11,881 nt of DNA. Source: a virus (taxonomy: Duplodnaviria; Heunggongvirae; Uroviricota; Caudoviricetes). This document shows positions 1 to 11,881 of this stretch, piece after piece. Below the pieces are notes generated by a model that did no database searches, was not told the origin of the DNA, and worked only from the letters and a program-made list of their open reading frames with translations. The stretch lies in IMG/VR virus record IMGVR_UViG_2579778791_000016, positions 1 to 11,881 of that record; one strand, written 5' to 3'. How positions within the stretch are numbered: position 1 is the first letter of the stretch; every line of letters begins with the position of its first letter. Made by a program: the position numbers and the translations under genes.

Positions 1-199
1 CCTCATAGTCGTCTTCGCTATCGCCATCAGGCACATCGTTTTTACTTCTCCTCAGATACGATATGTAAAAATCGCGCCAGGCATCCAGATCCAGTTGCCC
101 TCGCTTATTCGATATCGGGGCACCCGGCAATTTCTGCAATCTGCGAAGCTGGCGATCGGTCAGACTTAAATGCCTGGCAACTTCAGTCTGCGTAGCCAC
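1..199 (-). CDS. Terminase small subunit (Nu1-like), N-terminal part only; the gene continues beyond the window start
   Basis: Minus-strand frame opens with GTG at 199..197 preceded by an AGGTGAGGA Shine-Dalgarno and an in-frame TGA. Translation (M)ATQTEVARHLSLTDRQLRRLQKLPGAPISNKRGQLDLDAWRDFYISYL has the winged-HTH pattern of lambda Nu1 (lambda: KKQLADIFGASIRTIQNWQEQGMP). The start lies about 185 nt from cosN, as in lambda. Not in the ORF track because it runs off the window. Confidence 0.5.
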   Translation of the reverse strand, partial: MATQTEVARHLSLTDRQLRRLQKLPGAPISNKRGQLDLDAWRDFYISYLRRSKNDVPDGDSEDDYE

Positions 200-246
200 T
201 CCTCACCTCGCAAAAACTCTCACCTCACAATCACAACAAAACCGGT

Positions 247-345
247 CATGTCCGGTTTACATGTCTGTTTTTTGTTCATGTCCGGTTCACAGAAGACCTG
301 TTTTTATATTTTTCATATAGTTAACTTGAAGAGAAACCGGACATG
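247..345. other. cosB-like terminase binding region: three copies of the 11-mer CATGTCCGGTT (247-257, 277-287 direct; 335-345 inverted) between cosN and the terminase small-subunit start
   Basis: Exact 11-nt repeat seen three times, two direct and one inverted. The position and arrangement mirror the lambda R-sites, but the sequence differs from lambda cosB. Confidence 0.5.
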
Positions 346-382
346 GATCCCGGAAAATTTTCATAAATAGCGAAAACCCGCG

Positions 383-394
383 AGGTCGCCGCCC
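383..394. other. cosN cohesive-end site (12-nt GGGCGGCGACCT on the minus strand)
   Basis: Minus strand reads GGGCGGCGACCTCGCGGGTTTTCGCTATTTATGAAAATTTTCCGG, matching the lambda left end as recalled for about 45 nt. The flanking 400-560 region also resembles the lambda right end (e.g. TTTACGTTAAGTTGA...ATCAATTAAT). Confidence 0.65.
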
Positions 395-905
395 CGTAGC
401 CTGCCGGATCGCCGGAAAGGACCCAATAAAATGATAATAATTATCATTTATATAAATACCATCACACATCCCACGTACACCATAAAACCACGACAAATAA
501 TCAATTTTGTCCAAGTCATGCATTAATTGATCTGTGTCAACTTAACGTAAAGACATCTTAAGACAATACAAATCAGCAGCACTGAACACGGAAAAACACA
601 ATGTCATCAAAAAATAAAGCTTCCCAAACCAGATGATTAATCAAATCCATATTGCCCTTGAACGTAAGGGATCGGGTAATTTTTCGGCATGGGTTATTGA
701 AGCCTGCAGGAGAAGGCTGGCAACAAATGCAAAGCACCTGCGCCCGGCCAGCATGAAAAATAACGAGAAATGAACGTTCGGTTACAGGAACCGGTAGCTA
801 CTGTCTTCTAACAATATTTCATCTTCATATCCGGCGAAACAAGACTTTACCCTGCAGGGATGTACTGAATAGCAACAGAGTGATAATTAACTTCTGATAA
901 AATAA

Positions 906-1232
906 TCAGGGTGCTGAAGGACTAAAGATAAATGTTTTCTTCACGCCTTTACGCGGCTTGTCCTTCTCAAATCGCCATTTTGCCATCGCCTTTACAACCT
1001 GCTCATCAAACAGATGGTGCGGCTCTGAACGGATAAACTCAATTCGGGTGACAGTACCATCAGCACCAATATCAAACTTCACATCAACCCGTCCCTTTAT
1101 ATAATTTGCCGCGGCATAGGCCGGATATTGTGGTAATGCCTTAACCAACTGTCGAGGCATATCTGTTTTATGTTGCGTACAGCCCATAACCAAAGAAGAC
1201 AACAAAATAATTAACGGAAGATTTCTTTTCAT
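906..1232 (-). CDS. Lipoprotein with a TonB C-terminal-like domain (accessory gene)
   Basis: ORF 906..1247. Probable start is the ATG at 1232 (MKRNLPLIILLSSLVMGC, a signal peptide with lipobox and Cys) preceded by GGGA. The C-terminal half YPAYAAANYIKGRVDVKFDIGADGTVTRIEFIRSEPHHLFDEQVVKAMAKWRFE fits the TonB_C pattern (YP..A...GxV.V.F.I...G.V..I.I..S.....FD..V..A...WRF). The alternative ATG at 1247 has no Shine-Dalgarno. Confidence 0.6.
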   Translation of the reverse strand: MKRNLPLIILLSSLVMGCTQHKTDMPRQLVKALPQYPAYAAANYIKGRVDVKFDIGADGTVTRIEFIRSEPHHLFDEQVVKAMAKWRFEKDKPRKGVKKTFIFSPSAP

Positions 1233-1252
1233 TTTTATTCCCGGCATAGATA

Positions 1253-1269
1253 AGAATAAGTCTTATTCT
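1253..1269. promoter_or_regulatory. Perfect 8-1-8 inverted repeat AGAATAAG-T-CTTATTCT in the 5' leader of the TonB-like gene; candidate operator
   Basis: Seen directly in the sequence, 21 nt upstream of the ATG at 1232. The AT-rich hexamer-like arms are loosely reminiscent of a Fur box but are not a match. Confidence 0.3.
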
Positions 1270-1907
1270 AACAATGCAGCCCTGTCGGTCATCAATCCTC
1301 TGCTTAATGGCAATGACAATTATCCGACTTAAATCACAAATCAGACACATGACATAACAGAGCTTGCGAGGTAACACATCGTCCGGTTTCTTCCACCATC
1401 GCACCGGACCAGCGACCATGAGGGGACAACGCCGCGCTCCGTTAACACGGTAAACCCCGGTGTGTATCGTTTTTGATTATCCCCGCACACTCGCGCAGAG
1501 GAGTCTCCCTCTCGGGCTGTGGTCTCTGTTGATGCGGGAATACGGCGACGATACAGTGCATAGTTATGTCAGGCTAAAATGCCTTTATCAAATCTGGGTA
1601 ACGCAATCTGCCATTGTTGGCTCCGGTTGTGGTGATGATGTCAAGCAAGCCCATCTTGACTATCTCAACTAGTCGATTCATGACATATGTCACATTTATA
1701 CCAACCAGATCATTGCGTTGAGTTTACAACTCAATAATTCTTGGTTGGACGTCAAGTTTTGACGGTATTCGGGTGGCAGTTGATAGCAATCTTGGAACCG
1801 TCCACCTAATAGCTGCTTGTGTGGCGTTTAAATTGTGGAGTGCTCGCAACAGAACTTTTCTTTCTTGTTTGCGAGCGATGTTTAGCAACTTTTAAGAGAG
1901 TTAAGTC

Positions 1908-2138
1908 ATGGAGTTTTTGAAAGAGCATCATTTGCCTTCAATAATTTTTGGAATTTTTTCCGCCATTTTTTGGATTATTTCATGTTTTGCATCTTCCAAA
2001 GAACACCCACCAAAAACGGAACAAGGCAGTTTCTCATCACTGGGTTGTTTTAAAGCCATTGAAATACAAAGTAAATGGAATAAACGGGCTGCTTTTTGCG
2101 CAGCGTTAGCTGTTCTTGCTCAAGTATTTAGCTTTTAG
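1908..2138 (+). CDS. Small membrane protein of unknown function (76 aa), opposite strand to the late operon
   Basis: ATG start with a weak GAGAG Shine-Dalgarno, hydrophobic segment LPSIIFGIFSAIFWIISCFA, and a strong intrinsic terminator immediately downstream. AT-rich. Occupies the position and orientation that bor has in lambda but is unrelated to Bor. Confidence 0.4.
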   Translation: MEFLKEHHLPSIIFGIFSAIFWIISCFASSKEHPPKTEQGSFSSLGCFKAIEIQSKWNKRAAFCAALAVLAQVFSF

Positions 2139-2155
2139 TTTCAAAAGTGTAAATC

Positions 2156-2192
2156 AGAACCACTCGTATAGCGGGTGGTTCTCTGTTTTATT
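2156..2192 (+). terminator. Intrinsic terminator (11-bp stem, 5-nt loop, then CTGTTTTATT); probably bidirectional, also ending the late lysis transcript
   Basis: AGAACCACTCG/TATAG/CGGGTGGTTCT hairpin with one G-U pair. The plus strand has a T-run after it; the minus strand has a partial U-run (UGAUUUACACUUUUG). Confidence 0.55.
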
Positions 2193-2254
2193 CGTGTTGC
2201 GACTAAAACTAACTAAAATCACGCATATGAAAGATAATGGGAAAATTATCGCTA

Positions 2255-2692
2255 TCATCGAAGGCATTGCGTCCTAATGTACTCCTGCAAGTAGTTAACC
2301 TGCGCGGTTATCCTGTCGATTCCACTTCGGAGACGGTAATAATTGAGTTCAGCATCTGCTGTAAGTCCTGGGGTTTCTCCATTGCCCATGCCGCTGGCTC
2401 CGGTCGTTGACTTTGCACAGGTGGCGGCGACTTGCAGGCGCTTACGCCCAGCAGAAACATCAGCACGGAGACTTTCGATAGTCGCATTAGCATCAGCAAG
2501 CTCCTTTGTGTATCTGGCGTCAAGTTCTGCTACATCACGTTGCCGCTTCTGCATATCAGCGATGATGGATGTGGCTTTATCGCGCTGCTCTTTGTAGGCG
2601 ATGGCGTTATCACGGTAATGATTAACAGCCCATGAAAGGCAGACGATGAGGCAGATGACCAGAACGTAGATAATCGCGGTTACTCTGCTCAT
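2255..2692 (-). CDS. Rz: Rz i-spanin (inner-membrane spanin subunit)
   Basis: Translation [31 protein letters not shown]...[11 protein letters not shown] is close to lambda Rz as recalled. The start ATG at 2692 overlaps the R stop (ATGA). The ORF-track start at 2704 is four codons upstream. Confidence 0.85.
2308..2493 (-). CDS. Rz1: Rz1 o-spanin lipoprotein, embedded in the +1 frame of Rz
   Basis: [41 protein letters not shown]... has a lipobox plus a proline-rich stretch like lambda Rz1 (VVGCTSK...PPPPPAW). Lies wholly inside Rz in another frame. Start chosen at the ATG at 2493; ATGs at 2487 or 2523 are alternatives. Confidence 0.75.
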
Positions 2693-3186
2693 TGTTGCCC
2701 CCACAAACAGACTTCACGCTCAATCTCACGGCGAGTCATCAGCCCTTTCCATTGCTTACCGCCAGCGTATGTCCAGCGCCGTAGCTGATCACATGCGCCT
2801 TTGATATCGCCCTGGTTTATTTTGCGAAGAAGCGTCGATGTTCTGAAATTGCCAGCGCCCACGTTGTAAACGAACGAGTAAAGAGCGCCGCGCGTTGTTT
2901 CCGGTATATCGACGTTGATGTACGGGTTTATTTGTCTGGCGACCGTGGCAAGGTCTTTATTCAGGAGGGCTTTGCATTCTGCTTCGGTATACGTTTTACC
3001 GGGCATGATGTCTTTTCCGGTGTGTCCGTGACATACAGTCCATACGCCAACGATATCTTCGTATGGTATGTAGCTGACACCTTCCAGGCCATCGTCACCA
3101 CTCGGACCAGTGATGAGCACAGACGCTATGGCAACAGCCCCACCACCAATAGCAGCAGCAACAGCCTTGCGTAATGACGGCGACAT
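2689..3186 (-). CDS. R: SAR endolysin (phage-21-type lysozyme with N-terminal signal-anchor-release domain)
   Basis: [30 protein letters not shown]... has a Gly/Ala-rich SAR helix followed by a lysozyme domain, and is near-identical to phage 21 R as recalled. Start overlaps the S stop (TAATG). Confidence 0.9.
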
Positions 3187-3392
3187 TATTCACCTCTCGC
3201 AGCCTTACGCTTATCTTCTTTAATCTTGAAATAAAGGTTTGTCAGATACGTCAGCAGGCCAAACAGCAGACTCCCCAGCACACCTATTGCCACCCACTGG
3301 GACGGAGAGACTTTGTCCAGCAGCTGCAGTAACCAGTATCCCGTCCCCACCGCTGACGTGGTGTATGACACACCTGTTGTGATTTTTTCCAT
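3186..3392 (-). CDS. S: Pinholin (class II holin, S21-like)
   Basis: [68 protein letters not shown] has two transmembrane segments and a basic C-terminus, closely resembling S21-68. GGAG Shine-Dalgarno 10-14 nt upstream. No in-frame upstream start, so no dual-start antiholin is apparent. Confidence 0.85.
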
Positions 3393-3435
3393 CTGATGTA
3401 TGTCTCCGTCACCGCCGACAGAAAATGAAAGTAAA

Positions 3436-3473
3436 GAAAAACAAAAAAGCCGCCAGTGTCACCCACTGACGGC
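3436..3473 (-). terminator. Intrinsic terminator 44 nt upstream of the holin start codon
   Basis: Minus strand GCCGUCAGUG-GGUGA-CACUGGCGGC (10-bp stem with one U-G pair) followed by UUUUUUGUUUUUCUUU. Confidence 0.6.
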
Positions 3474-3648
3474 CAACGCCGGGAGCCGTGATTATGGCAT
3501 TCAGGCTCTGCTAAAAATGCCAGATAACATTCCGGCCAACCCCTGATTCAGGTTATAAATGACACAATATCTTGACAACATCCGTCACTGTCTGTCAGAA
3601 AATGTACTGCCAAGTATAAGTATCATGTGAAGTACATCTACCCGTTTT

Positions 3649-3684
3649 AGCCAGCGTCCTTCAGAGTGGGCGCTGGCTTTTTTT
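3649..3684 (+). terminator. Plus-strand-specific intrinsic terminator abutting the nanS-p stop codon, antisense to the late operon
   Basis: Plus strand AGCCAGCG-(12-nt loop)-CGCUGGCU followed by UUUUUUUAUUAU. On the minus strand the same hairpin is preceded by an A-run and followed by AAAACGGG, so it should not terminate late transcription. Confidence 0.5.
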
Positions 3685-3685
3685 A

Positions 3686-5536
3686 TTATGCTGCCGGTGC
3701 ATTTATCTCCAGCACCAGACTTTCTATCTCAACACCATACGCTGCATTTTTGGTAATATCCGTCAGCGTCAGCGCATTCAGCCCCAGTGTCAGACTGTCT
3801 TTTATGACCTGGAATGCCGGGCCAGCCACTCCATTCAGTTTCGGAGTAACCGTGGCACTGCCGGCGGTGAACACCAGCTCCAGCGTCTGCCAGTCGTTAC
3901 CGTAATCGCCGAACTCCCCCAGCTTCGTGTTTCCGGCTTTCCTGTGATGCATCAGATTCACTCTGCCGTCAGTGGTCTGAGTGAAGTGCGACATCAGGAA
4001 CGGATTACCGGTACCCGTCATCGCCACACCATCAGGAACGGGAGCGTCCGTATACAGATAAATCCCCAGCCCGAACTGATTGTTGGTCAGTGCGCCTGAG
4101 AGGCGGAACTTACAGGTCAGTCTGCCGCCCTGTGTCAGCAGGGTAATTGCGTCATCCACCGGATGCATCAGGGACCAGGTTTTATTGCTCTGCTTGGTGA
4201 TCTTAAATACACCATCTGACAACTGAATTCCGCCGTCCTTAATGGTCCAGCCCTGCGCAGCAGCATCTCCGGCTGTCGGCATCAGGGAGATTGTGCGTAT
4301 GGATGCATCTTCAGACGGCCCCGATGGCGTGTTGCCGCCGGGCGAGGGTTTGATTTCCGGTGCCTTACCACTGATGAAGGCTGAGGTGCGCCCGGCTGCG
4401 TTCAGAATAGCGGTTGCCAGACGATCCGGAATAATGCTCCTGCGCGCCCATGAACTGAAATGTGTCGGGCGGTTTGATGATACCTGGTTTCCATTCGTTC
4501 TCGATGCCGCACCGTAATATCCTGATGCCGGAATATCCGGATCTTCTGCCGGCGCGTTAGTGGCGGTATTGACGCCGTTACCGTCTGTCATGAAGGGCAC
4601 AAAATAAACGCCCTCACTCTCCCTGTTTTTATACCCGCCGTACACGGTGTCGTACTGGGTAGCGTATGTATTTTTCCAGTAATACGTCGTGTCACCACAA
4701 ACCCACGGCACATCTGCAGCACTGCCACCATGACACTGCGCGTTAAACACAGAGAGGTCAGCACGAAACTGCGTCAGCATGGCTGTAAACAGCGCAGGTT
4801 GCTGTGCGTAGGTGGCGGCGCTCATGTCAAACTCACCCTGCATCCAGCAGACGGCCAGCAGAACGTTTTTGGGATTTTTCTGCAATGCCGCTTTTGTGCG
4901 GGAAATCAGATCCTGATATAACGGCTTGCCCACCCCCCAGCGTGCCGAATCCTGACTGGCCCCCGTGGACTCGCTGAATGTCCCCTCCGCGCCCTGGGTA
5001 AATGCCGAACCACCACGACAGCATGGTACCAGCAGGATCCCCGCGTTATTCGGGATATACGGGAGCAGTTTTTTGGCAATATGTAAACCCTGACCGACAC
5101 AGCCGTACTGCCCTTTGCTCAGGTCAGCCCTCGGATGATTCAGCGTACTCATATCCTGCACATCATGCAGACAGTGGTCAGCCGGAATAATATCGTTATA
5201 TCTGCAGGCAGCCCCGCCCGGCGTCACTGTACTGCGGCGCGCCAGCTGTTTAATGCGCGGATCCGGAGCATCGTATGAATCCGGCAGCGGAAGCCCTTCA
5301 CCGTAAGCCATGGCATTGGACTGCCCGGCCAGTACGATGACGTAGTACCAATCCGGCTCAGATGAAGGGCCGACCTGTGCCTCTCCTTCAATAGCCACCG
5401 CCTGCATCAGTGTGTACGGCGTAATGGCAACCGGTCCGCCGTATGGCTGCCAGCCCTCTTTCAGTTTGTGTGTCAGCTTTTCCGCAAGGTCTGACGGCGA
5501 CGCCGCCCTGACAACATCGTAATGTTTAATCGACAT
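3686..5536 (-). CDS. nanS-p: Prophage sialate 9-O-acetylesterase (NanS-p / YjhS-like; N-terminal DUF1737-like region plus SGNH/SASA esterase domain)
   Basis: 616-aa ORF with ATG at 5536 and GGGAGA Shine-Dalgarno. Contains the SGNH block-I motif VIVLAGQSNAMAYGEG. Sits immediately upstream of the lysis cassette, as the nanS-p genes of Stx and related lambdoid prophages do. Confidence 0.75.
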   Translation of the reverse strand: MSIKHYDVVRAASPSDLAEKLTHKLKEGWQPYGGPVAITPYTLMQAVAIEGEAQVGPSSEPDWYYVIVLAGQSNAMAYGEGLPLPDSYDAPDPRIKQLARRSTVTPGGAACRYNDIIPADHCLHDVQDMSTLNHPRADLSKGQYGCVGQGLHIAKKLLPYIPNNAGILLVPCCRGGSAFTQGAEGTFSESTGASQDSARWGVGKPLYQDLISRTKAALQKNPKNVLLAVCWMQGEFDMSAATYAQQPALFTAMLTQFRADLSVFNAQCHGGSAADVPWVCGDTTYYWKNTYATQYDTVYGGYKNRESEGVYFVPFMTDGNGVNTATNAPAEDPDIPASGYYGAASRTNGNQVSSNRPTHFSSWARRSIIPDRLATAILNAAGRTSAFISGKAPEIKPSPGGNTPSGPSEDASIRTISLMPTAGDAAAQGWTIKDGGIQLSDGVFKITKQSNKTWSLMHPVDDAITLLTQGGRLTCKFRLSGALTNNQFGLGIYLYTDAPVPDGVAMTGTGNPFLMSHFTQTTDGRVNLMHHRKAGNTKLGEFGDYGNDWQTLELVFTAGSATVTPKLNGVAGPAFQVIKDSLTLGLNALTLTDITKNAAYGVEIESLVLEINAPAA

Positions 5537-5620
5537 CGAATTTCTCCCGTGTAGAGGAACAGAGTTAAAAAGCCGGAAGCGGAATCAAATCACAGGATGA
5601 CCATCTGCCAGTGGCAGGTC

Positions 5621-5649
5621 ATAAAAAAAAGGCTGCGCAATGCGCAGCC
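5621..5649 (-). terminator. Strong intrinsic terminator upstream of nanS-p; likely 3' end of the upstream cargo unit
   Basis: Minus strand GGCUGCGCA-UU-GCGCAGCC followed by UUUUUUUUAU. Confidence 0.65.
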
Positions 5650-6078
5650 AGAACTCACAAGGAAAATGATAAAAGGAATAACACTAGTGATGTACGCATG
5701 GCGCCTCCCGCTAAGTTCTGCAATGATCAAACAGAACTCGCTACGTGCCCTTAAAACTCGATCATTTAGCCCCTCCAAGGAGGATTCACCATGCGGTTGA
5801 TTTTTTAATAAACAGTAAACAAAAAAGTCAAGAATTATTCATTCTGTTCTTTCATCATCGGCCACAGCAATACCACAATGCCGCAGACCAGAGCGCCATC
5901 AGTCAGTACCAACATTATCCTGCTGGTGAAATCCATCATCACCATCACTAAAAGCAGGATCACAACAGCAAGCAGACACAGTTTATAAAACAATGTTCAG
6001 AAAACGCATTCAGCATGCCTAAGGTTCTATTCCTACGAATAGCCAACTTGCAACTTAAAATATTATTTATGCAGCCAA

Positions 6079-6795
6079 TTAAATTCTGGTCCTTACAATA
6101 TCAACCTGAAGATTCTTATCTTGTGCTGATTGATAAATGACAAACCTTTTACTACCTGCATTGAAAGAAGTAGACAAAACCAGACAATTATCATAACGAG
6201 CAAGAACATAATACCAACCATCATTATAATTAATCATTTCATATTCTTTCTTAAACTGTGGTTTGTAATATCCTGTCAGAAATGAAAAAAGCCAAAAATA
6301 TGCCACAAAAGCAATCATCACAATCTCAAAAAAATGTTTTTTTATAAATGGCTTATCATAGAAGCATGATACCGATAAAAATCGCCCATAAGATCTTATC
6401 GAAATTGTAACCGCCAGCGCAATCGCTGCTGACAGTAGCAAAAGAGGTACCTGAATCTTCTGTCTCAATATAGAAAACTCAATAATTGCCGGCACAAACA
6501 ATAATTCCACAGCAAAATAAAGGCGAAATACATTTAGCTCTTGCATAGAATGTTTTCTTTTCACTGCGAAAAAGAATACAACACCAATACCCCAACCGAT
6601 AAGAAATATAGCAATGACGATAACTGCAAAAAATAAACTTCTGGCAACATCATCAACACCTGCACCTACAATCCACCATGGGAAGCCGTAGTAAAAAGAA
6701 GTACCCCATCCATAGAAATAAGCACTCCCCCATCCAAGGCATCCCATGTAGGCAATAAAAAGTGAAGAACTCCTGAGCAGCGCACCATCCTTCAT
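6079..6795 (-). CDS. Uncharacterised polytopic membrane protein (about 5 predicted transmembrane helices plus a roughly 65-aa C-terminal soluble domain); AT-rich cargo gene
   Basis: Only long ORF in a markedly AT-rich block (track 6079..6837). Hydrophobic segments include LFIAYMGCLGWGSAYFYGW, LFFAVIVIAIFLIGWGIGVVFFFAV, FRLYFAVELLFVPAIIEF, LLLLSAAIALAVTISI and IVMIAFVAYFWLFSFLTGYY. Probable start is the ATG at 6795 (MKDGALL..., GGGGTGG upstream), because the first ATG at 6837 lies inside a promoter-like -10 element. No recognisable family. Confidence 0.6.
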   Translation of the reverse strand: MKDGALLRSSSLFIAYMGCLGWGSAYFYGWGTSFYYGFPWWIVGAGVDDVARSLFFAVIVIAIFLIGWGIGVVFFFAVKRKHSMQELNVFRLYFAVELLFVPAIIEFSILRQKIQVPLLLLSAAIALAVTISIRSYGRFLSVSCFYDKPFIKKHFFEIVMIAFVAYFWLFSFLTGYYKPQFKKEYEMINYNDGWYYVLARYDNCLVLSTSFNAGSKRFVIYQSAQDKNLQVDIVRTRI

Positions 6796-6832
6796 AACCA
6801 CCCCAATACAAGATGATAACATTGGCTTACAA

Positions 6833-6862
6833 CTCATAACAAAAGCAATTCAATGCCGTCAA
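6833..6862 (-). promoter_or_regulatory. Candidate sigma70 promoter of the membrane-protein cargo gene (TTGACG-N18-TATGAG)
   Basis: -35 TTGACG at 6862..6857, -10 TATGAG at 6838..6833, between the Q-proximal terminator and the gene. Judged by eye only. Confidence 0.3.
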
Positions 6863-6933
6863 GAGGTTACAGGCTAAAAAAACTCTATTACATAGCAGCC
6901 AGCATGTTTACCGTACAAGTACAACTCAGGGCA

Positions 6934-6961
6934 TAAAAAAAACCCACTCGGCAGCGGGTTT
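6934..6961 (-). terminator. Intrinsic terminator about 45 nt downstream of the Q stop codon (candidate tR')
   Basis: Minus strand AAACCCGCU-GCCG-AGUGGGUUU (G-U wobble in stem) followed by eight U. The plus strand also has a partial T-run after the hairpin. Confidence 0.65.
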
Positions 6962-6994
6962 ATACATTTTTTACAACATACCAAATTTGCATGA

Positions 6995-7023
6995 AGTATA
7001 TGGCTTTTAATCCAGTTTTGCAA
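6995..7023 (-). promoter_or_regulatory. Near-consensus sigma70 promoter overlapping the 3' end of Q (candidate late promoter pR' with qut)
   Basis: TTGCAA (7023..7018) - 17 nt - TATACT (7000..6995) on the minus strand. The Q stop codon (7009..7007) lies inside the spacer. A -10-like TGGTATGTT sits in the initial transcribed region. Confidence 0.45.
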
Positions 7024-7696
7024 TATTTTGCTGTAAAAATGCTGCCTTTTGTTTTGAACGTGTTCTCGTCACAAGCAATAAAGCATCACTATCAAGCTGT
7101 AGAAAAATGTGCTTCATTGCAACCCAGCGTTCAGTAAATGTCTCGGACCAGTTTTTTGTTGTCACTCCCACCAATGATGCCAGTGTCTGGTATTCATAGG
7201 CCTCACGCCCTGCAAGTTCGCTCTTCACATCCTGTGCAGCCAGCCAGATTAACGTCTTCAGGCGATCCAGTGTCTTACCTGCAATTTTTCTGTTACTTAA
7301 CAAATCTTTAAACTCGCTCCATGCCCATTGCGTTATGGTGACCTGATGCCCCCATCGAACGCTTTCGCTGTAACACCAAAGCAACCATGCTTTCTGATGT
7401 TCATCGAGAGACAAAACCGCGCGGCGCCATGAAGAGGTTGAGAATTCAACCGGGCTGACCAAAGCAATGGATGAACCTTTTGCGTACGACTGCTTACCGG
7501 AAGTCGGCGTATTATCCCGCGTAATCATCTTGCCAGTTACCACATCCAGAATGCGCGGCTTCTTTCGTTTGTATGTACCAGTATCAAATTGTGCATGCTC
7601 CTGCCAGGCTTCGAGCTGGCCTTTCGTTGCTCCGTTCAAGTCAGCAGTAGCTGCCATAAGTTGCTCACGAACATACTGTAAATATTGGGTATTCAT
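7007..7696 (-). CDS. Q: Q-like late antiterminator (long-form Q family, about 230-250 aa)
   Basis: Positioned after ninI and before the late/lysis genes, with a promoter and terminator at its 3' end. Start taken at the ATG at 7696 (MNTQYLQYVREQ..., AGGA Shine-Dalgarno 8 nt upstream) rather than the track start at 7780. Family assignment rests on context and size, not on recognised motifs. Confidence 0.5.
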   Translation of the reverse strand: MNTQYLQYVREQLMAATADLNGATKGQLEAWQEHAQFDTGTYKRKKPRILDVVTGKMITRDNTPTSGKQSYAKGSSIALVSPVEFSTSSWRRAVLSLDEHQKAWLLWCYSESVRWGHQVTITQWAWSEFKDLLSNRKIAGKTLDRLKTLIWLAAQDVKSELAGREAYEYQTLASLVGVTTKNWSETFTERWVAMKHIFLQLDSDALLLVTRTRSKQKAAFLQQNIAKLD

Positions 7697-8172
7697 GCAG
7701 TAAATCCTTTCTATATTTTGGCATAATTCTTCAACATTCGGTAATCGTTCAAAACCGAATCGGGGAAACGACATAAGCACAGGAGCCCCCAGCGACAGCG
7801 AAGGAGTTCTGATATATAAGACTCAGACATCATTCATTCCCCGGTTCTCCAATATCTGTTTCACTCATCATCCATAACTACCTGTAATTGCCCCCCCTTT
7901 TTTTGTAACAGTTCTTATATTGCTATATAGAATAGCCATTACTAATGCATTTAAATTTAATAAAATAAAAATTATAAAAAAACATAAAACACCACGCAAA
8001 CACACTTAATAAAAACACCGTTACATTAAAAGATAATAAAAACCACAATAAAAAACAAATAAATCAATTGTCTCACGCAATTATAAAACATCATATTGAT
8101 TACGCACCTTGTATTACAAACTCATGTATGTAAAATACGCGCACCATTCAAAAAAAAGGAAGACAATAACAT

Positions 8173-9132
8173 ATGAAAAAAAGTGTCATCGCTGGCGTCT
8201 TTATTGCTCTGTCATTTACCACGTGTTCAGCTATCGCGAACAGCCTTGCATTATCATTAGCAAATGATGATGCAGGGAAGTTTCAACCAATACTTAATGA
8301 TATTTATGGCAATAAACATGAAAACAGAGATGATTACTCACAAGGCTTATTTCTGGGATATAGCCACGATATCTCAGACTCGAGCCAATTATCTCTCCAT
8401 ATTGCGCAAGATATTTACTCTCCATCAGGCAGTAATAAAAGACACAACACAGCCGTAACTGGAGACAGAGCTTTTAGTGCATACACTCACACTGGTATTG
8501 AATGGAACTCCCTTGCGAATGACTGGATTCGCTATCGATTAGGTACTGACATAGGTGTTGTTGGCCCCGACGCAGGCGGTCAGAAAGTACAAAATAAAGC
8601 TCATGAGATTATTGGGGCAGAAAAATATCATGCATGGGATGATCAAATAGAGAATCGCTACGGTTATACTGTAAAAGGGATGCTATCCATGACACCAAGT
8701 ATGGATATTTTAGGTGCTAATGTTGGATTATACCCTGAAGTTTCTGCTGTTACTGGAAACTTATTTCAATATGTAGCATATGGCGCAACCATTGCCATTG
8801 GTAATGATAAAACCTTCAATTCGGATAATGGCTTTGGTCTGCTGGCTCCCCGTGGTTTAATGCATATGTCCGATACAAGCGGATTCAAATACAAGATTTT
8901 TGCAGGTATGGAAAGACGAGATGTCAATCGCAACTATACTCTCGAAGGAAAAACAATACAGACGAAACAAACAACAGTATCGCTAAACAAAACTGTTGAT
9001 GAATATCAAGTTGGCGCAACAATTGGGTATGCACCTGTAGCCTTCACACTAGCATTTAATAAAGTAACATCAGAATTCAAGACAGGGGATGACTATTCAT
9101 TTATAAATGGAGCAATCACCTTCTTTTTTTAA
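8173..9132 (+). CDS. lpxR: Outer-membrane beta-barrel protein, probably lipid A 3'-O-deacylase LpxR family
   Basis: Signal peptide MKKSVIAGVFIALSFTTCSAIA, predicted mature size 296 aa (the size I recall for mature LpxR), C-terminal aromatic beta-barrel signature ...GAITFFF, AAGGAAG Shine-Dalgarno. AT-rich gene with a long AT-rich upstream region, opposite in orientation to the flanking phage genes. Confidence 0.55.
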   Translation: MKKSVIAGVFIALSFTTCSAIANSLALSLANDDAGKFQPILNDIYGNKHENRDDYSQGLFLGYSHDISDSSQLSLHIAQDIYSPSGSNKRHNTAVTGDRAFSAYTHTGIEWNSLANDWIRYRLGTDIGVVGPDAGGQKVQNKAHEIIGAEKYHAWDDQIENRYGYTVKGMLSMTPSMDILGANVGLYPEVSAVTGNLFQYVAYGATIAIGNDKTFNSDNGFGLLAPRGLMHMSDTSGFKYKIFAGMERRDVNRNYTLEGKTIQTKQTTVSLNKTVDEYQVGATIGYAPVAFTLAFNKVTSEFKTGDDYSFINGAITFFF

Positions 9133-9161
9133 CTGAATTGAATTCAATCAAAATAACATAA

Positions 9162-9214
9162 GTCCAACAAAAACATAAAGTGCGAAATGAATGCCAGCTC
9201 CATTTATTTCGCAC
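9162..9214 (-). terminator. Intrinsic terminator in the ninI-lpxR convergent intergenic region (minus-strand orientation)
   Basis: 14-bp stem GUGCGAAAUGAAUG/CAUUUAUUUCGCAC (one G-U pair) with a 7-nt loop, followed on the minus strand by UUUAUGUUUUUGUUGG. Confidence 0.5.
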
Positions 9215-9343
9215 TATAAAAGATTAAAAGTTGCAATAAAATAATAAAATGACTCAGTTACGAAAACCAATAAACTGTGGCCAGTAGTGAGTCGCTCATC
9301 ATCGGGCTTTTTGGCGAATGAAATTTAGCTACGCTTTCGAGTC

Positions 9344-10009
9344 TCATGCGCCTTCTCCCTGTACCTGAATCAATGTGAGGTTTCCGCAGAACACTGCGCC
9401 AGTATCGATATACATCTGGTTGGCAAATTTGAGTGGTTTCACTGCTGGCGTATGACCAAAGATGAACGTGTCCGCGCCTTTGATTTCTTTCACGATCCCG
9501 TCTTGTGAGTTGCTGATTCGTTCGCGGTTCCAGATTACCTGCTGATGATCAACTGGCTTTCCAAACTCGTATTTATCACAAGGATAATCGGCGTGGCAAA
9601 TGACATATTTTTTATCTTTGCTCACCAGTTCGATGATTAACGGAAGTTCTTCTGCTTTATGGGCAAGAACTTTAGCCAGAGTCTCTTTGTCGTAATCGAG
9701 ATTAAAGAACCAGCCACCGCCATTAAGCAGCCAGTGATTAACGTTTCCACGCTCTGATAAGCCATCAATCATCATTTGCTCATGGTTTCCACGCACAGCT
9801 CTGAACCAGGGGAATGTGATTAATTCCAGACATTCGACGTTCTCTGTACCGCGATCAACCAAATCGCCAACCGAGATGAGCAGGTCTTTTTTGGTGTCGA
9901 ATCCAATCGTATCCAGTTTGTTCATCAGGTTCGTGTAGCATCCGTGCAGGTCGCCAGCTACCCAAATATTTCGGTATTTGCTGCCATCAATTCTTTCGTA
10001 GATATTCAT
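9344..10009 (-). CDS. ninI: Ser/Thr protein phosphatase (lambda NinI / lambda-PPase homologue)
   Basis: 221 aa with metallophosphatase motifs GDLHG, GDLVDRG and GNHE; near-identical to lambda phosphatase as recalled. Start overlaps the ninG stop (ATGA). Confidence 0.9.
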
Positions 10010-10620
10010 GCAGCCTCACTTCTGCTGTTTCGCAGGTCTTTGAGTTTCTGTTGGTACTCTGCCTTGATCGCCTTGCACTCTTCGACAGTCCAGCGATGGC
10101 GGTTATGGTTTGATTCGATTTCGTCTACTGCTTCCTGCCTGATGCGGCTAATCAGTTCGACGCGATACGGAACGAGATTTCCGCTTTTGTGCTGGTTGCA
10201 CACCACGCATTGCTTGTGAATATTGCGTTCATCAAATCGGAGTTGAGGTGCCGCAGCAGTTGTCCGGTAATGTCCGGCATCCCACTGAGCAGACGTGAGC
10301 GTTCCGCACGAGATACATGGTAAGTCGCGGTCTCTTTCTCTGATGAAGGCGTTTACGGCTTGTTGGGCTTGTTTAATCCAGTAACTGCGGGGCTTTAAGG
10401 CGAGTTTTCGAATCTTAAGTTTATCTTTCTGTTTCTGCTCCTCTCGTCGTCGTTTCTTCTCTGCTGCTTTTTCCGCTTTTTCGCGTTCTTTACTTCGTCG
10501 TTCGAGTGCTATCTTGGTTCCACACTCTGGAGAGCACCACCACTGATTAGCGAATGCAGGGTGAAACCATTCCCGACATTCATCGTTTTTACATCGTCTT
10601 CGCGCTGGTTTAGCCATCAT
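10006..10620 (-). CDS. ninG: NinG / Rap recombination-associated protein
   Basis: 204 aa, [34 protein letters not shown]...; near-identical to lambda NinG as recalled. Confidence 0.9.
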
Positions 10621-10780
10621 CTTCTTCCTCGTGCATCGAGCTATTCGAATCGCTCATCAGCTCTGCACAGCAGTGCTCACACACGTGAACTTCCAGCACA
10701 TGCAGCTTCTGACCGCAATTAGCGCACGTTAAAGCCCGCTCGACGCTTTCTTGTTCGTAACTTCGATTTGGGTCAATCAC
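10610..10780 (-). CDS. ninF: NinF
   Basis: ...[43 protein letters not shown]...EEEDDG matches lambda NinF. Probable GTG start at 10780 overlaps the ninE stop (GTGA); the track ORF extends upstream to 10822. Confidence 0.8.
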
Positions 10781-10959
10781 CTTGTATTCCTCGCACGATG
10801 TCTTAGCCACCGGATATCCCACAGGTGAGCCGTGTAGTTGAAGGTTTTTACGTCAGATTCTTTTGGGATTGGCTTGCGTTTATTTCTGGAGCGTTTCGTT
10901 GGAAGGTATTTGCAGTTTTCGCAGATGATGTCGGTGAAACTTCGTCGTTGTCGCCTCAT
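10777..10959 (-). CDS. ninE: NinE
   Basis: 60 aa, [60 protein letters not shown], near-identical to lambda NinE. ATG overlaps the upstream stop (ATGA). Confidence 0.85.
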
Positions 10960-11415
10960 GTCGCCCTCCTGACGCCCTGCCCGATCGCCATCAATGCCGC
11001 TTTGGATACGATAGTAAACATCCGTCGAGGACTAATGAACGGTCGCCAAATCAGCAGCATGGAGCCTTTGCTGTTTCCCTTCTTCTCCAGCCCTGTCGAT
11101 GGTTCGATAAAATTAATCCGTCCATCAGTGATAATACGAACTTCGTCAACACTCTCCAGAGCCTTGCTGAACCATCCGACAGACATATCCTCTGGCACAA
11201 GCATCACTACCGTCTGTCGCTGTTGTATGCACTGCTCAGCGGCTTTTTCCACCCACGGCCTGATATTGCTGTACGGTGGGTTATTCCAGATTGCACCGTG
11301 GCTTATCCACTCAGAATTTAGCGCGTCGTCAGCCTCAGTTAGCCAGTGAGCGCACAGAGCGTTTTTGTCGCTCGCTGCCGAATCCAGCCAGAATCCAAAC
11401 TCAATATCCAGTGCA

Positions 11416-11866
<451 letters not shown>

Positions 11867-11881
11867 TTTATGGTCACTTTT

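Follow-up and report, generated by a model that had tools for sequence, protein, structure and literature searches.

Interference with TonB-dependent transport from the periplasmic side has been described for engineered as well as for phage-encoded proteins. Periplasmic fragments of TonB (residues 33-239, 103-239 and 122-239) inhibit TonB-dependent transport, according to bioRxiv 10.1101/2020.01.05.895219 and to PMC9841981, which cites Howard 2001; a Ton-box pentapeptide lowers colicin killing and phi80 infection (PMC9841981). In case of phage T5, the lipoprotein Llp resides in the inner leaflet of the outer membrane at the periplasmic face of FhuA, its acylation aiding the binding (bioRxiv 10.64898/2026.03.26.714494). 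The present analysis concerns the gene of a TonB C-terminal-domain lipoprotein, encoded in an 11,881-nucleotide (nt) stretch of caudoviral DNA (positions 1 to 11,881 of IMG/VR record IMGVR_UViG_2579778791_000016; termed the window in the following), which represents the right end of a lambda-like Escherichia coli prophage with genes read on the minus strand. The TonB-domain gene belongs to the accessory ('moron') genes carried by lambda-like prophages, and its product may act as an outer-membrane-tethered decoy for Ton boxes, a role to which we give an even chance. To date, the gene is known as a generic annotation with a function uncharacterised in the literature found, the sole mention there being a 'putative TonB-like protein' in a comparison of E. 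coli from inflammatory bowel disease (PMC3155842).

A lipoprotein with a TonB C-terminal domain

The gene and its product comprise the following features:

906-1232, minus strand: coding sequence of the 108-amino acid (aa) TonB C-terminal-domain lipoprotein (list of open reading frames, ORFs, and PGAP; stop codon 906-908)
921-1157, minus strand: TonB C-terminal domain, residues 26-104, corresponding to E. coli TonB 153-231 (Pfam, TIGRFAM, phmmer, AlphaFold2, Foldseek)
1179-1232, minus strand: signal peptide MKRNLPLIILLSSLVMG and lipobox Cys18 (codon 1181-1179), with Thr at +2 (inspection)
1239-1242, minus strand: Shine-Dalgarno-like GGGA, 6 nt before ATG 1232 (inspection)

A preceding reading of the DNA from its letters alone (the sequence-only reading) had started from the minus-strand ORF at 906-1247, which is present in the ORF list, and had used its outer start. 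ATG 1232, located five codons inside this ORF, is far likelier than ATG 1247 and is almost certainly the true start, giving 108 aa. ATG 1247 is devoid of a Shine-Dalgarno sequence, and 66 of 80 close relatives have GTG in its place. The inner start was chosen by PGAP (entry 'TonB family protein', WP_000828067.1, at identical coordinates) and by the annotators of phage 21 alike; in the latter, AGGA at the corresponding place is annotated as ribosome binding site.

The predicted TonB C-terminal domain was recovered by profile search with PF03544 (TonB_C; E=2.7e-15, 57.0 bits versus a cut-off of 24.6) as well as with TIGR01352 (56.9 bits, cut-off 27.1), its actual span being about 80 aa (residues 26-104) rather than the 60 aa initially assumed. 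By phmmer, residues 26-104 align without gaps to PDB chains of E. coli and Salmonella TonB (E about 1e-16). The structure predicted by AlphaFold2 (25 sequences) likewise displays the TonB fold (strand 28-30, helix 38-42, strands 47-55 and 61-70, helix 76-83, strand 94-103), with a predicted local distance difference test score >95 over residues 30-105. The best Foldseek matches were 1u07 (a 92-residue TonB fragment), 2gsk_B (chain B of 2GSK, TonB with BtuB) and 2grx_C (chain C of 2GRX, TonB with FhuA), at a probability of 1.00, root-mean-square deviations of 1.0-1.4 Å and target template modelling scores of 0.88-0.92; the intertwined dimer of shorter TonB fragments (1QXX) did not fit the model. 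Y36, F75 and W86 occur in all of 25 phage and chromosomal sequences, P37 and F103 in at least 90 % of them. No viral protein of like fold was retrieved from BFVD at E up to 0.001.

An alignment of 17 short homologues, representing three or more clades and ranging down to 40 % identity, with 8 chromosomal TonBs revealed the exchange of the N-terminal part. In place of the TonB anchor and Pro-rich spacer (~130 residues), the short homologues possess an 18-residue lipoprotein signal and an 8-residue tether, the length of which is constant across all 17. PF16031 is recorded for the TonBs and for none of the short homologues. Profiles of full-length TonB equivalogs (NCBIfam, PRK10819) scored 49.5-74.2 bits versus cut-offs of 265-448, with only the last ~80 profile positions matching. 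The mature protein of 91 residues represents a complete TonB C-terminal domain, corresponding to residues 145-235 of TonB. Since the membrane anchor and the proline spacer are missing, energisation of the protein by ExbB/ExbD and the proton-motive force appears very unlikely.

The earlier assignment as a lipoprotein agrees with the positively charged n-region, the hydrophobic h-region and the lipobox seen by inspection. The lipobox (LVMG-C in the window) ends in G-C in all 17 short homologues, the Cys being kept at the same aligned position, and is followed at +2 by T, S, A, V or G, in no case by Asp. According to the sorting rule of E. coli, lipoproteins with Asp at +2 avoid the Lol pathway, and those without it are sorted to the outer membrane. 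The protein is therefore predicted to be an outer-membrane lipoprotein facing the periplasm.

In a gene-only search, the gene was found in 1616 of 5426 complete E. coli genomes, in all of which it is labelled 'TonB family protein'; about 414 carry the window-type and about 1201 the phage-21-type, and 1612 genomes contain an intact copy. Carriers include phage 21, Stx1a phages, ev017, Perceval and a Klebsiella phage, as well as the enteropathogenic E. coli (EPEC) strain E2348/69, and identities within the family amount to 41-49 % across phages of E. coli and Klebsiella. Compared to the homologue of phage 21 (70 % protein identity), the ratio of non-synonymous to synonymous substitution rates (dN/dS) is 0.13 at a dS of about 1.5. 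In phage 21, a Klebsiella phage and an unrelated HNH/Terminase_4 phage, the gene occupies the same slot, with the lysis genes ahead of it and the packaging genes behind it, and is co-oriented with them. Purifying selection, spread and the fixed slot together argue for a conserved accessory gene and not for a decaying fragment. The single match of a contig scan, i.e., the first 67 residues at 70 % identity on a 418-nt contig of a Modestobacter excelsi assembly (NZ_SJEX01000172.1), almost certainly reflects contamination by enterobacterial phage DNA.

Putative promoter, palindrome and Fur-type sites

The region upstream of the gene contains the following features:

1249-1267, plus strand: weak Fur-box-like 19-mer GATAAGAATAAGTCTTATT (13/19 to GATAATGATAATCATTATC)
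1253-1269, no strand assigned: 8-1-8 palindrome AGAATAAG-T-CTTATTCT, with arm 1262-1269 sharing five bases with the -10 and arm 1253-1260 being clade-specific
1265-1273, minus strand: extended -10 TGT-TAGAAT (consensus scan)
1287-1292, minus strand: weak -35-like ATGACC with a 16-nt spacer (consensus scan)
1385-1560, minus strand: conserved non-coding block of ~175 nt (alignment of 14 upstream variants; also locus L001, 3213-3375)

The sequence-only reading had reported a perfect 8-1-8 inverted repeat at 1253-1269, which is correct to the base, and had placed it in the leader of the gene. The repeat is not part of a transcribed leader but is positioned on the promoter-like extended -10, with the predicted start site inside the dyad. 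This -10 is kept as TGTYAGAAT in the window-, phage-21- and P0044-type clades and as TGTTAGTAT in the P0045-type, and the conservation of TGTTAGAAT persists despite saturated synonymous divergence between the clades. The -35-like hexamer is doubtful, because it varies among close relatives (ATGGCC, ATGATC, ATGCCC).

By chance, 0.23 perfect 8-1-8 repeats are expected per window, and at least one occurred in 19 % of shuffled sequences, so that perfection alone constitutes weak evidence; the window itself holds four. Further perfect palindromes are GGCTGCGCAATGCGCAGCC at 5631-5649, which is G+C-rich and situated ~95 nt upstream of the esterase gene, and CTCTCCTGATTCAGGAGAG at 11848-11866. The position of the 8-1-8 palindrome on a promoter-like -10 is not due to chance. 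Among 80 close loci the dyad is perfect in 74, and each of the other six has a single uncompensated change in one arm. It is missing in all 71 scorable loci (of 74) of the phage-21 clade, which are nearly identical and read ...TTGTCAGAATAAGAC-CCGT-AGGAATAAAAATG at this place. The left arm is retained there because it coincides with the -10, and the right arm is absent. The repressor site that had been proposed is supported in part only, as the specific palindrome is not conserved in homologous loci. A search for AGAATAAG-N-CTTATTCT with up to 3 mismatches yielded no further copy, either in the window or in a complete 36.7-kb prophage that contains the identical module and whose cro/cI region was covered as well. 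Most likely, the palindrome represents a clade-specific by-product composed of the -10 and a short inserted inverted copy of it. A role as RNA hairpin or terminator was rejected by inspection (7 A-U-rich pairs, no U-tract, Shine-Dalgarno sequence uncovered, start site inside the stem), and no terminator-like site was called at the palindrome in a scan.

In case of Fur, matches to the consensus (19-bp GATAATGATAATCATTATC and 7-1-7 TGATAATNATTATCA) were calibrated with K-12 promoters. The Fur-regulated promoters of fepA-fes, fepD-entS, fepB-entC, fhuA, cirA, exbB and tonB reached 12-16/19 and 9-13/14, respectively. Across 1225 phage windows of 100 nt, the background frequencies were 0.0024 for 14/14, 0.0065 for 12/14, 0.007 for 14/19 and 0.038 for 13/19. 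The site of the window scores 13/19 (P=0.038 per 100 nt), which equals fepA-fes and exbB on the same measure, and its best 7-1-7 match (9/14) is located elsewhere. The resemblance to a Fur box had been called loose; this applies to the site in the window, and at the family level it is stronger than supposed. A perfect Fur box (TGATAAT-N-ATTATCA, 14/14) directly follows the same extended -10 in the P0044 and P0045 relatives. The P0044-type locus reads TTTTGTTAGAAT, then TGATAATCATTATCA, then ATGGAGG...GTG, and the P0045-type locus TGTTAGTAT, then TGATAATTATTATCA, then ATTGAGGA...GTG. These 7-1-7 boxes are 8-1-8 dyads themselves. The P0047-type locus reaches 12/14 and several Klebsiella-type loci 14/19; the phage-21 clade no longer has a box.

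The conserved -10 together with the perfect Fur boxes of relatives suggests that the family promoter is ancestrally iron-regulated, i.e., repressed by Fur. In the window, the box may have decayed to 13/19, which is compatible with a weak site and is not evidence for one. The arrangement in the relatives is similar to that of Fur-repressed E. coli promoters in that an AT-rich dyad covers the -10 and the start site; the window differs from these promoters by its half-site, which is AGAATAAG and not TGATAAT.

Further upstream, the block at 1385-1560 is kept between the window- and phage-21-type clades, whereas the ~110 nt toward the promoter diverge much more. Its distal edge at ~1560 represents a mosaic junction, upstream of which at least five unrelated sequences are joined. 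Neither of two candidate explanations for the block was retained: for a structured RNA, fold z-scores were -1.05 and -1.35 and no Rfam match was obtained up to E 10; in case of a hidden gene, the only shared ORF (opposite strand) showed mostly non-synonymous changes and is frameshifted in one variant. The small ORF CPT_21_72 of phage 21 (45 aa) is shortened to 21 aa in the window.

Candidate function and alternatives

In the proposed role as a Ton-box decoy, the lipid anchor would reside in the inner leaflet of the outer membrane, and, with a tether of 8-13 residues, the domain would be kept next to TonB-dependent transporters on their periplasmic face. There, the domain could pair by strand with exposed Ton boxes, as TonB does. 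Lacking coupling to ExbB/ExbD and to the proton-motive force, it would act as a decoy competing with scarce host TonB. The anchorage in the outer membrane favours the transporters as target over ExbD of the inner membrane. As a consequence of such competition, TonB-dependent phages (T1, phi80 and relatives) would be hampered in steps that require energy, such as irreversible adsorption and DNA entry, and the import of group B colicins and siderophore-microcins would be damped, at the price of a lower uptake of siderophores and vitamin B12. Expression could occur by read-through from the late promoter during lytic growth, and probably also from the gene's own promoter with the extended -10 TGTTAGAAT.

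Several points weigh against this role. In TonB, the N-terminus of the domain should face the inner membrane, which raises a concern about docking geometry in case of a short tether at the outer membrane. Two positions implicated in Ton-box suppression and in contact with FhuA are changed. At Q160, the classic Ton-box suppressor position, the phage proteins are variable (L, Y, H, P, T, S; Leu in the window), and R166, which is Arg in 8/8 TonBs, is replaced by Tyr in 17/17 phage proteins. Partner specificity may therefore differ from that of TonB. A decoy induced under iron starvation would deepen the starvation, which is an apparent cost. Moreover, the promoter is known as a consensus match only, a search against PADLOC-DB 2.0 yielded no defence family at E up to 0.01, and full-text literature searches revealed no functional study of a phage TonB-domain lipoprotein.

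Some of the same observations bear on other functions. According to a purely late-lytic role, the protein would be made only from the Q-antiterminated late transcript and would shut TonB-dependent receptors against superinfection or loss of progeny. Co-orientation with the late genes and a location right behind the lysis genes, seen in all phage contexts examined, the lack of a strong minus-strand terminator between Rz and the gene, and the precedent of T5 Llp agree with such a role. It is nevertheless unlikely, considering the extended -10 conserved across clades with saturated synonymous sites and the Fur box on the promoter of relatives, which would be hard to understand if the gene were transcribed from pR' alone; in addition, lysed cells are de-energised anyway, so that a block of TonB would add little. 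Also improbable is a positive or signalling modulator that binds Ton boxes or the TonB box of colicins, ExbD or peptidoglycan and thereby tunes transporters (FecA-type signalling) or captures colicins. The systematic difference of the phage family at the receptor-contact positions Q160 and R166 would suit a modulator, and the Fur-type control in relatives links the gene to iron physiology; on the other hand, the short outer-membrane tether makes contact with ExbD in the inner membrane unlikely, and we know of no partner other than Ton boxes for this fold face at the outer membrane. An accessory function in envelope or lysis, i.e., a peptidoglycan-binding outer-membrane lipoprotein or an aid or timer of outer-membrane disruption, could be derived from the location of this lipoprotein gene beside the lysis cassette and from PHROG 1267 ('Rz-like spanin', lysis), which matches the protein end to end (E=2.9e-42). 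With a complete Rz/Rz1 pair already present and the fold being that of TonB, this function is very unlikely, and for the same two reasons the label of PHROG 1267 looks positional; as the family members are TonB-domain lipoproteins, it is probably a positional error, set to propagate into phage annotations. A spanin proper was rejected, as the protein has no C-terminal transmembrane segment (KGVKKTFIFSPSAP is not hydrophobic) and no Pro-rich region, and its gene lies ~1 kb from Rz and is not embedded in an i-spanin gene.

That the gene represents a functionless decaying fragment of a captured host tonB is extremely unlikely. Only the C-terminal third of TonB is present, an older annotation reads 'partial tonB-like membrane protein', and truncated as well as chimeric variants exist in databases; however, dN/dS is 0.13, a lipoprotein signal was acquired and conserved, the gene is intact in 1612 genomes, and the family spans phages of E. 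coli and Klebsiella at 41-49 % identity. As to the palindrome, an operator for a non-Fur repressor (CI/Cro-type or a host factor) in the window-type clade could be read from the perfect 17-bp dyad with lambda-operator geometry, centred near the predicted start site, and from its perfection in 74 of the 80 close relatives. Such an operator is quite improbable, since neither the window nor the full prophage, immunity region included, contains a second copy (up to 3 mismatches), the module is found combined with different immunity regions, the dyad is absent from the three times commoner phage-21 clade, six relatives have uncompensated one-arm changes, and the -10 alone accounts for the left arm.

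A TolA C-terminal-domain (PF06519) lipoprotein with the lipobox SLAG-C is encoded in Klebsiella oxytoca (GCA_030795405.1; locus L189, 699-1160), 2 kb from a TonB-domain lipoprotein gene, and a 45 %-identical 'TolA protein' is located between Q and the lysis genes of the lambdoid phage mEp460_ev081 (locus L191, 5004-5432; LR597641, 40533-40961). Their architecture suggests that TolA-domain lipoproteins may constitute a parallel decoy for the Tol system. More generally, copies of the docking domains of the two envelope energy transducers TonB and TolA, tethered to the outer membrane and carried by temperate phages of enterobacteria, might serve as decoys. The TonB copy, being ancestrally Fur-controlled, would be switched on when TonB-dependent receptors are derepressed by iron starvation and would sequester their Ton boxes, thus conferring on lysogens a broad tolerance to TonB-dependent phages, colicins and siderophore-microcins. 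This would amount to a receptor-independent superinfection exclusion directed at energy coupling and encoded in about 30 % of E. coli genomes; the extended proposal is tentative and somewhat doubtful.

If the Ton-box decoy holds true, a prophage gene would damp the whole TonB import route rather than a single receptor in nearly one third of the sequenced E. coli strains. This would affect the host range of TonB-dependent phages, with bearing on phage therapy and typing, the sensitivity to colicins and to siderophore-microcins of probiotic strains, and the uptake of siderophore-antibiotic conjugates through TonB-dependent transporters. It would also provide a natural, evolved proof of principle for blocking the contact between TonB and the Ton box, a pursued drug target (PMC9841981).

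Gene surroundings and comparison with known systems

The other features of the window considered here are:

7007-7780, minus strand: antiterminator Q
6079-6837, minus strand: 252-aa multi-pass membrane protein, between Q and esterase
3686-5536, minus strand: SASA-family sialate esterase
3186-3392, minus strand: holin
2689-3186, minus strand: endolysin
2255-2704, minus strand: Rz (PF03245)
2308-2523, minus strand: Rz1 lipoprotein ORF embedded in Rz (ORF list)
633-773, plus strand: DUF3950 gene, convergent with the TonB-domain gene
417-423, minus strand: cosQ GGGTCCT (inspection and analogy to the cosQ annotation of phage 21)
383-394, minus strand: cosN GGGCGGCGACCT

This map bears out the earlier placement of the gene between the lysis cassette (Rz/Rz1, 2255-2704) and cos, a gap of about 1 kb separating Rz from the TonB-domain gene (906-1232). 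The positions of cosN and cosQ place the gene at the right end of the phage map, and the gene order ends beyond cosQ/cosN with the start of the small terminase subunit. The Rz-cos interval is indeed the one harbouring bor in lambda, as had been pointed out; the gene is, however, not a stand-in for bor, since phage 21 carries bor and, downstream of it, the TonB-domain gene. A 76-aa ORF with two hydrophobic segments (1908-2138, plus strand), followed by a strong terminator-like site with a 12-bp stem (2156-2182, plus strand), occupies the same slot and orientation as bor in lambda and phage 21; for this ORF (PGAP hypothetical, WP_157778920.1), Pfam and PADLOC gave no match.

A few bases upstream of cosQ, a perfect 10-1-10 palindrome AAATGATAATAATTATCATTT (429-449) holds an exact Fur 7-1-7 motif (TGATAAT-A-ATTATCA) and reaches 16/19 to the 19-mer. 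Likewise, TGATAATCATTATCA is found at this place in lambda (J02459, 48452-48466), and the exact motif occurs in 22 of the other loci retrieved.

The 252-aa membrane protein (6079-6837) is encoded in the slot of the toxin genes in Stx phages, and Pfam and PADLOC gave no match for it. Just upstream of Q and on the opposite strand (8173-9132, plus strand), a 319-aa homologue of outer-membrane LpxR from the lipid A 3'-O-deacylase family (PF09982, E=7e-40) is encoded, likely a lysogenic-conversion gene modifying lipid A. Positions 700-1500 share 100 % identity with two complete E. coli genomes and 99.9 % with EPEC E2348/69. As a whole, the window is a mosaic: the match to the prophage of FDAARGOS_1059 ends at 5529, and any one complete genome covers at most 86 % of the window.

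With respect to known systems, the prophage protein resembles most closely the C-terminal domain of E. coli TonB, with which it shares the fold, 38-44 % identity over 79 gapless residues, and the YP motif and aromatics matching Y163, F180, F202, W213 and F230. It differs from TonB in lacking the transmembrane anchor, the Pro-rich spacer and the last 4 residues. In mature length (91 aa) it is comparable to the TonB-92 fragment. Like the engineered TonB fragments, it represents a periplasmic TonB C-terminal region uncoupled from the motor in the inner membrane. These fragments inhibit the transport of ferrichrome and of ferric citrate, which has been ascribed to blocked contacts between TonB and transporters (bioRxiv 10.1101/2020.01.05.895219; PMC9841981, citing Howard 2001). 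The engineered fragments are soluble, over-expressed and 118-207 residues long, whereas the prophage protein is natural, minimal, lipid-anchored and under selection, and by analogy may be inhibitory as well.

The Bor/Iss proteins of lambda and phage 21 are also outer-membrane lipoproteins encoded by a moron between Rz and cos; bor is encoded on the strand opposite to the TonB-domain gene, and its family is unrelated. Small phage outer-membrane lipoproteins that inactivate FhuA and mediate superinfection exclusion are further represented by Llp of T5 and Cor of phi80, N15 and HK022. Llp acts on a TonB-dependent transporter from the periplasmic face, its acylation confining the interaction to the membrane plane, and also blocks the uptake of ferrichrome and colicin M. 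Kinship to Llp or Cor was not detected, the Pfam scan having given only TonB_C and TonB_2 and the fold being that of TonB; a direct comparison was not run. Llp and Cor are specific for FhuA and remodel its plug and loops, whereas a TonB-domain decoy should target the Ton box that many transporters have in common and, unlike Llp and Cor, leave reversible adsorption unblocked. What would be new compared to Llp and Cor is a phage lipoprotein built from a captured host energy-transducer domain and aimed at the shared Ton box.

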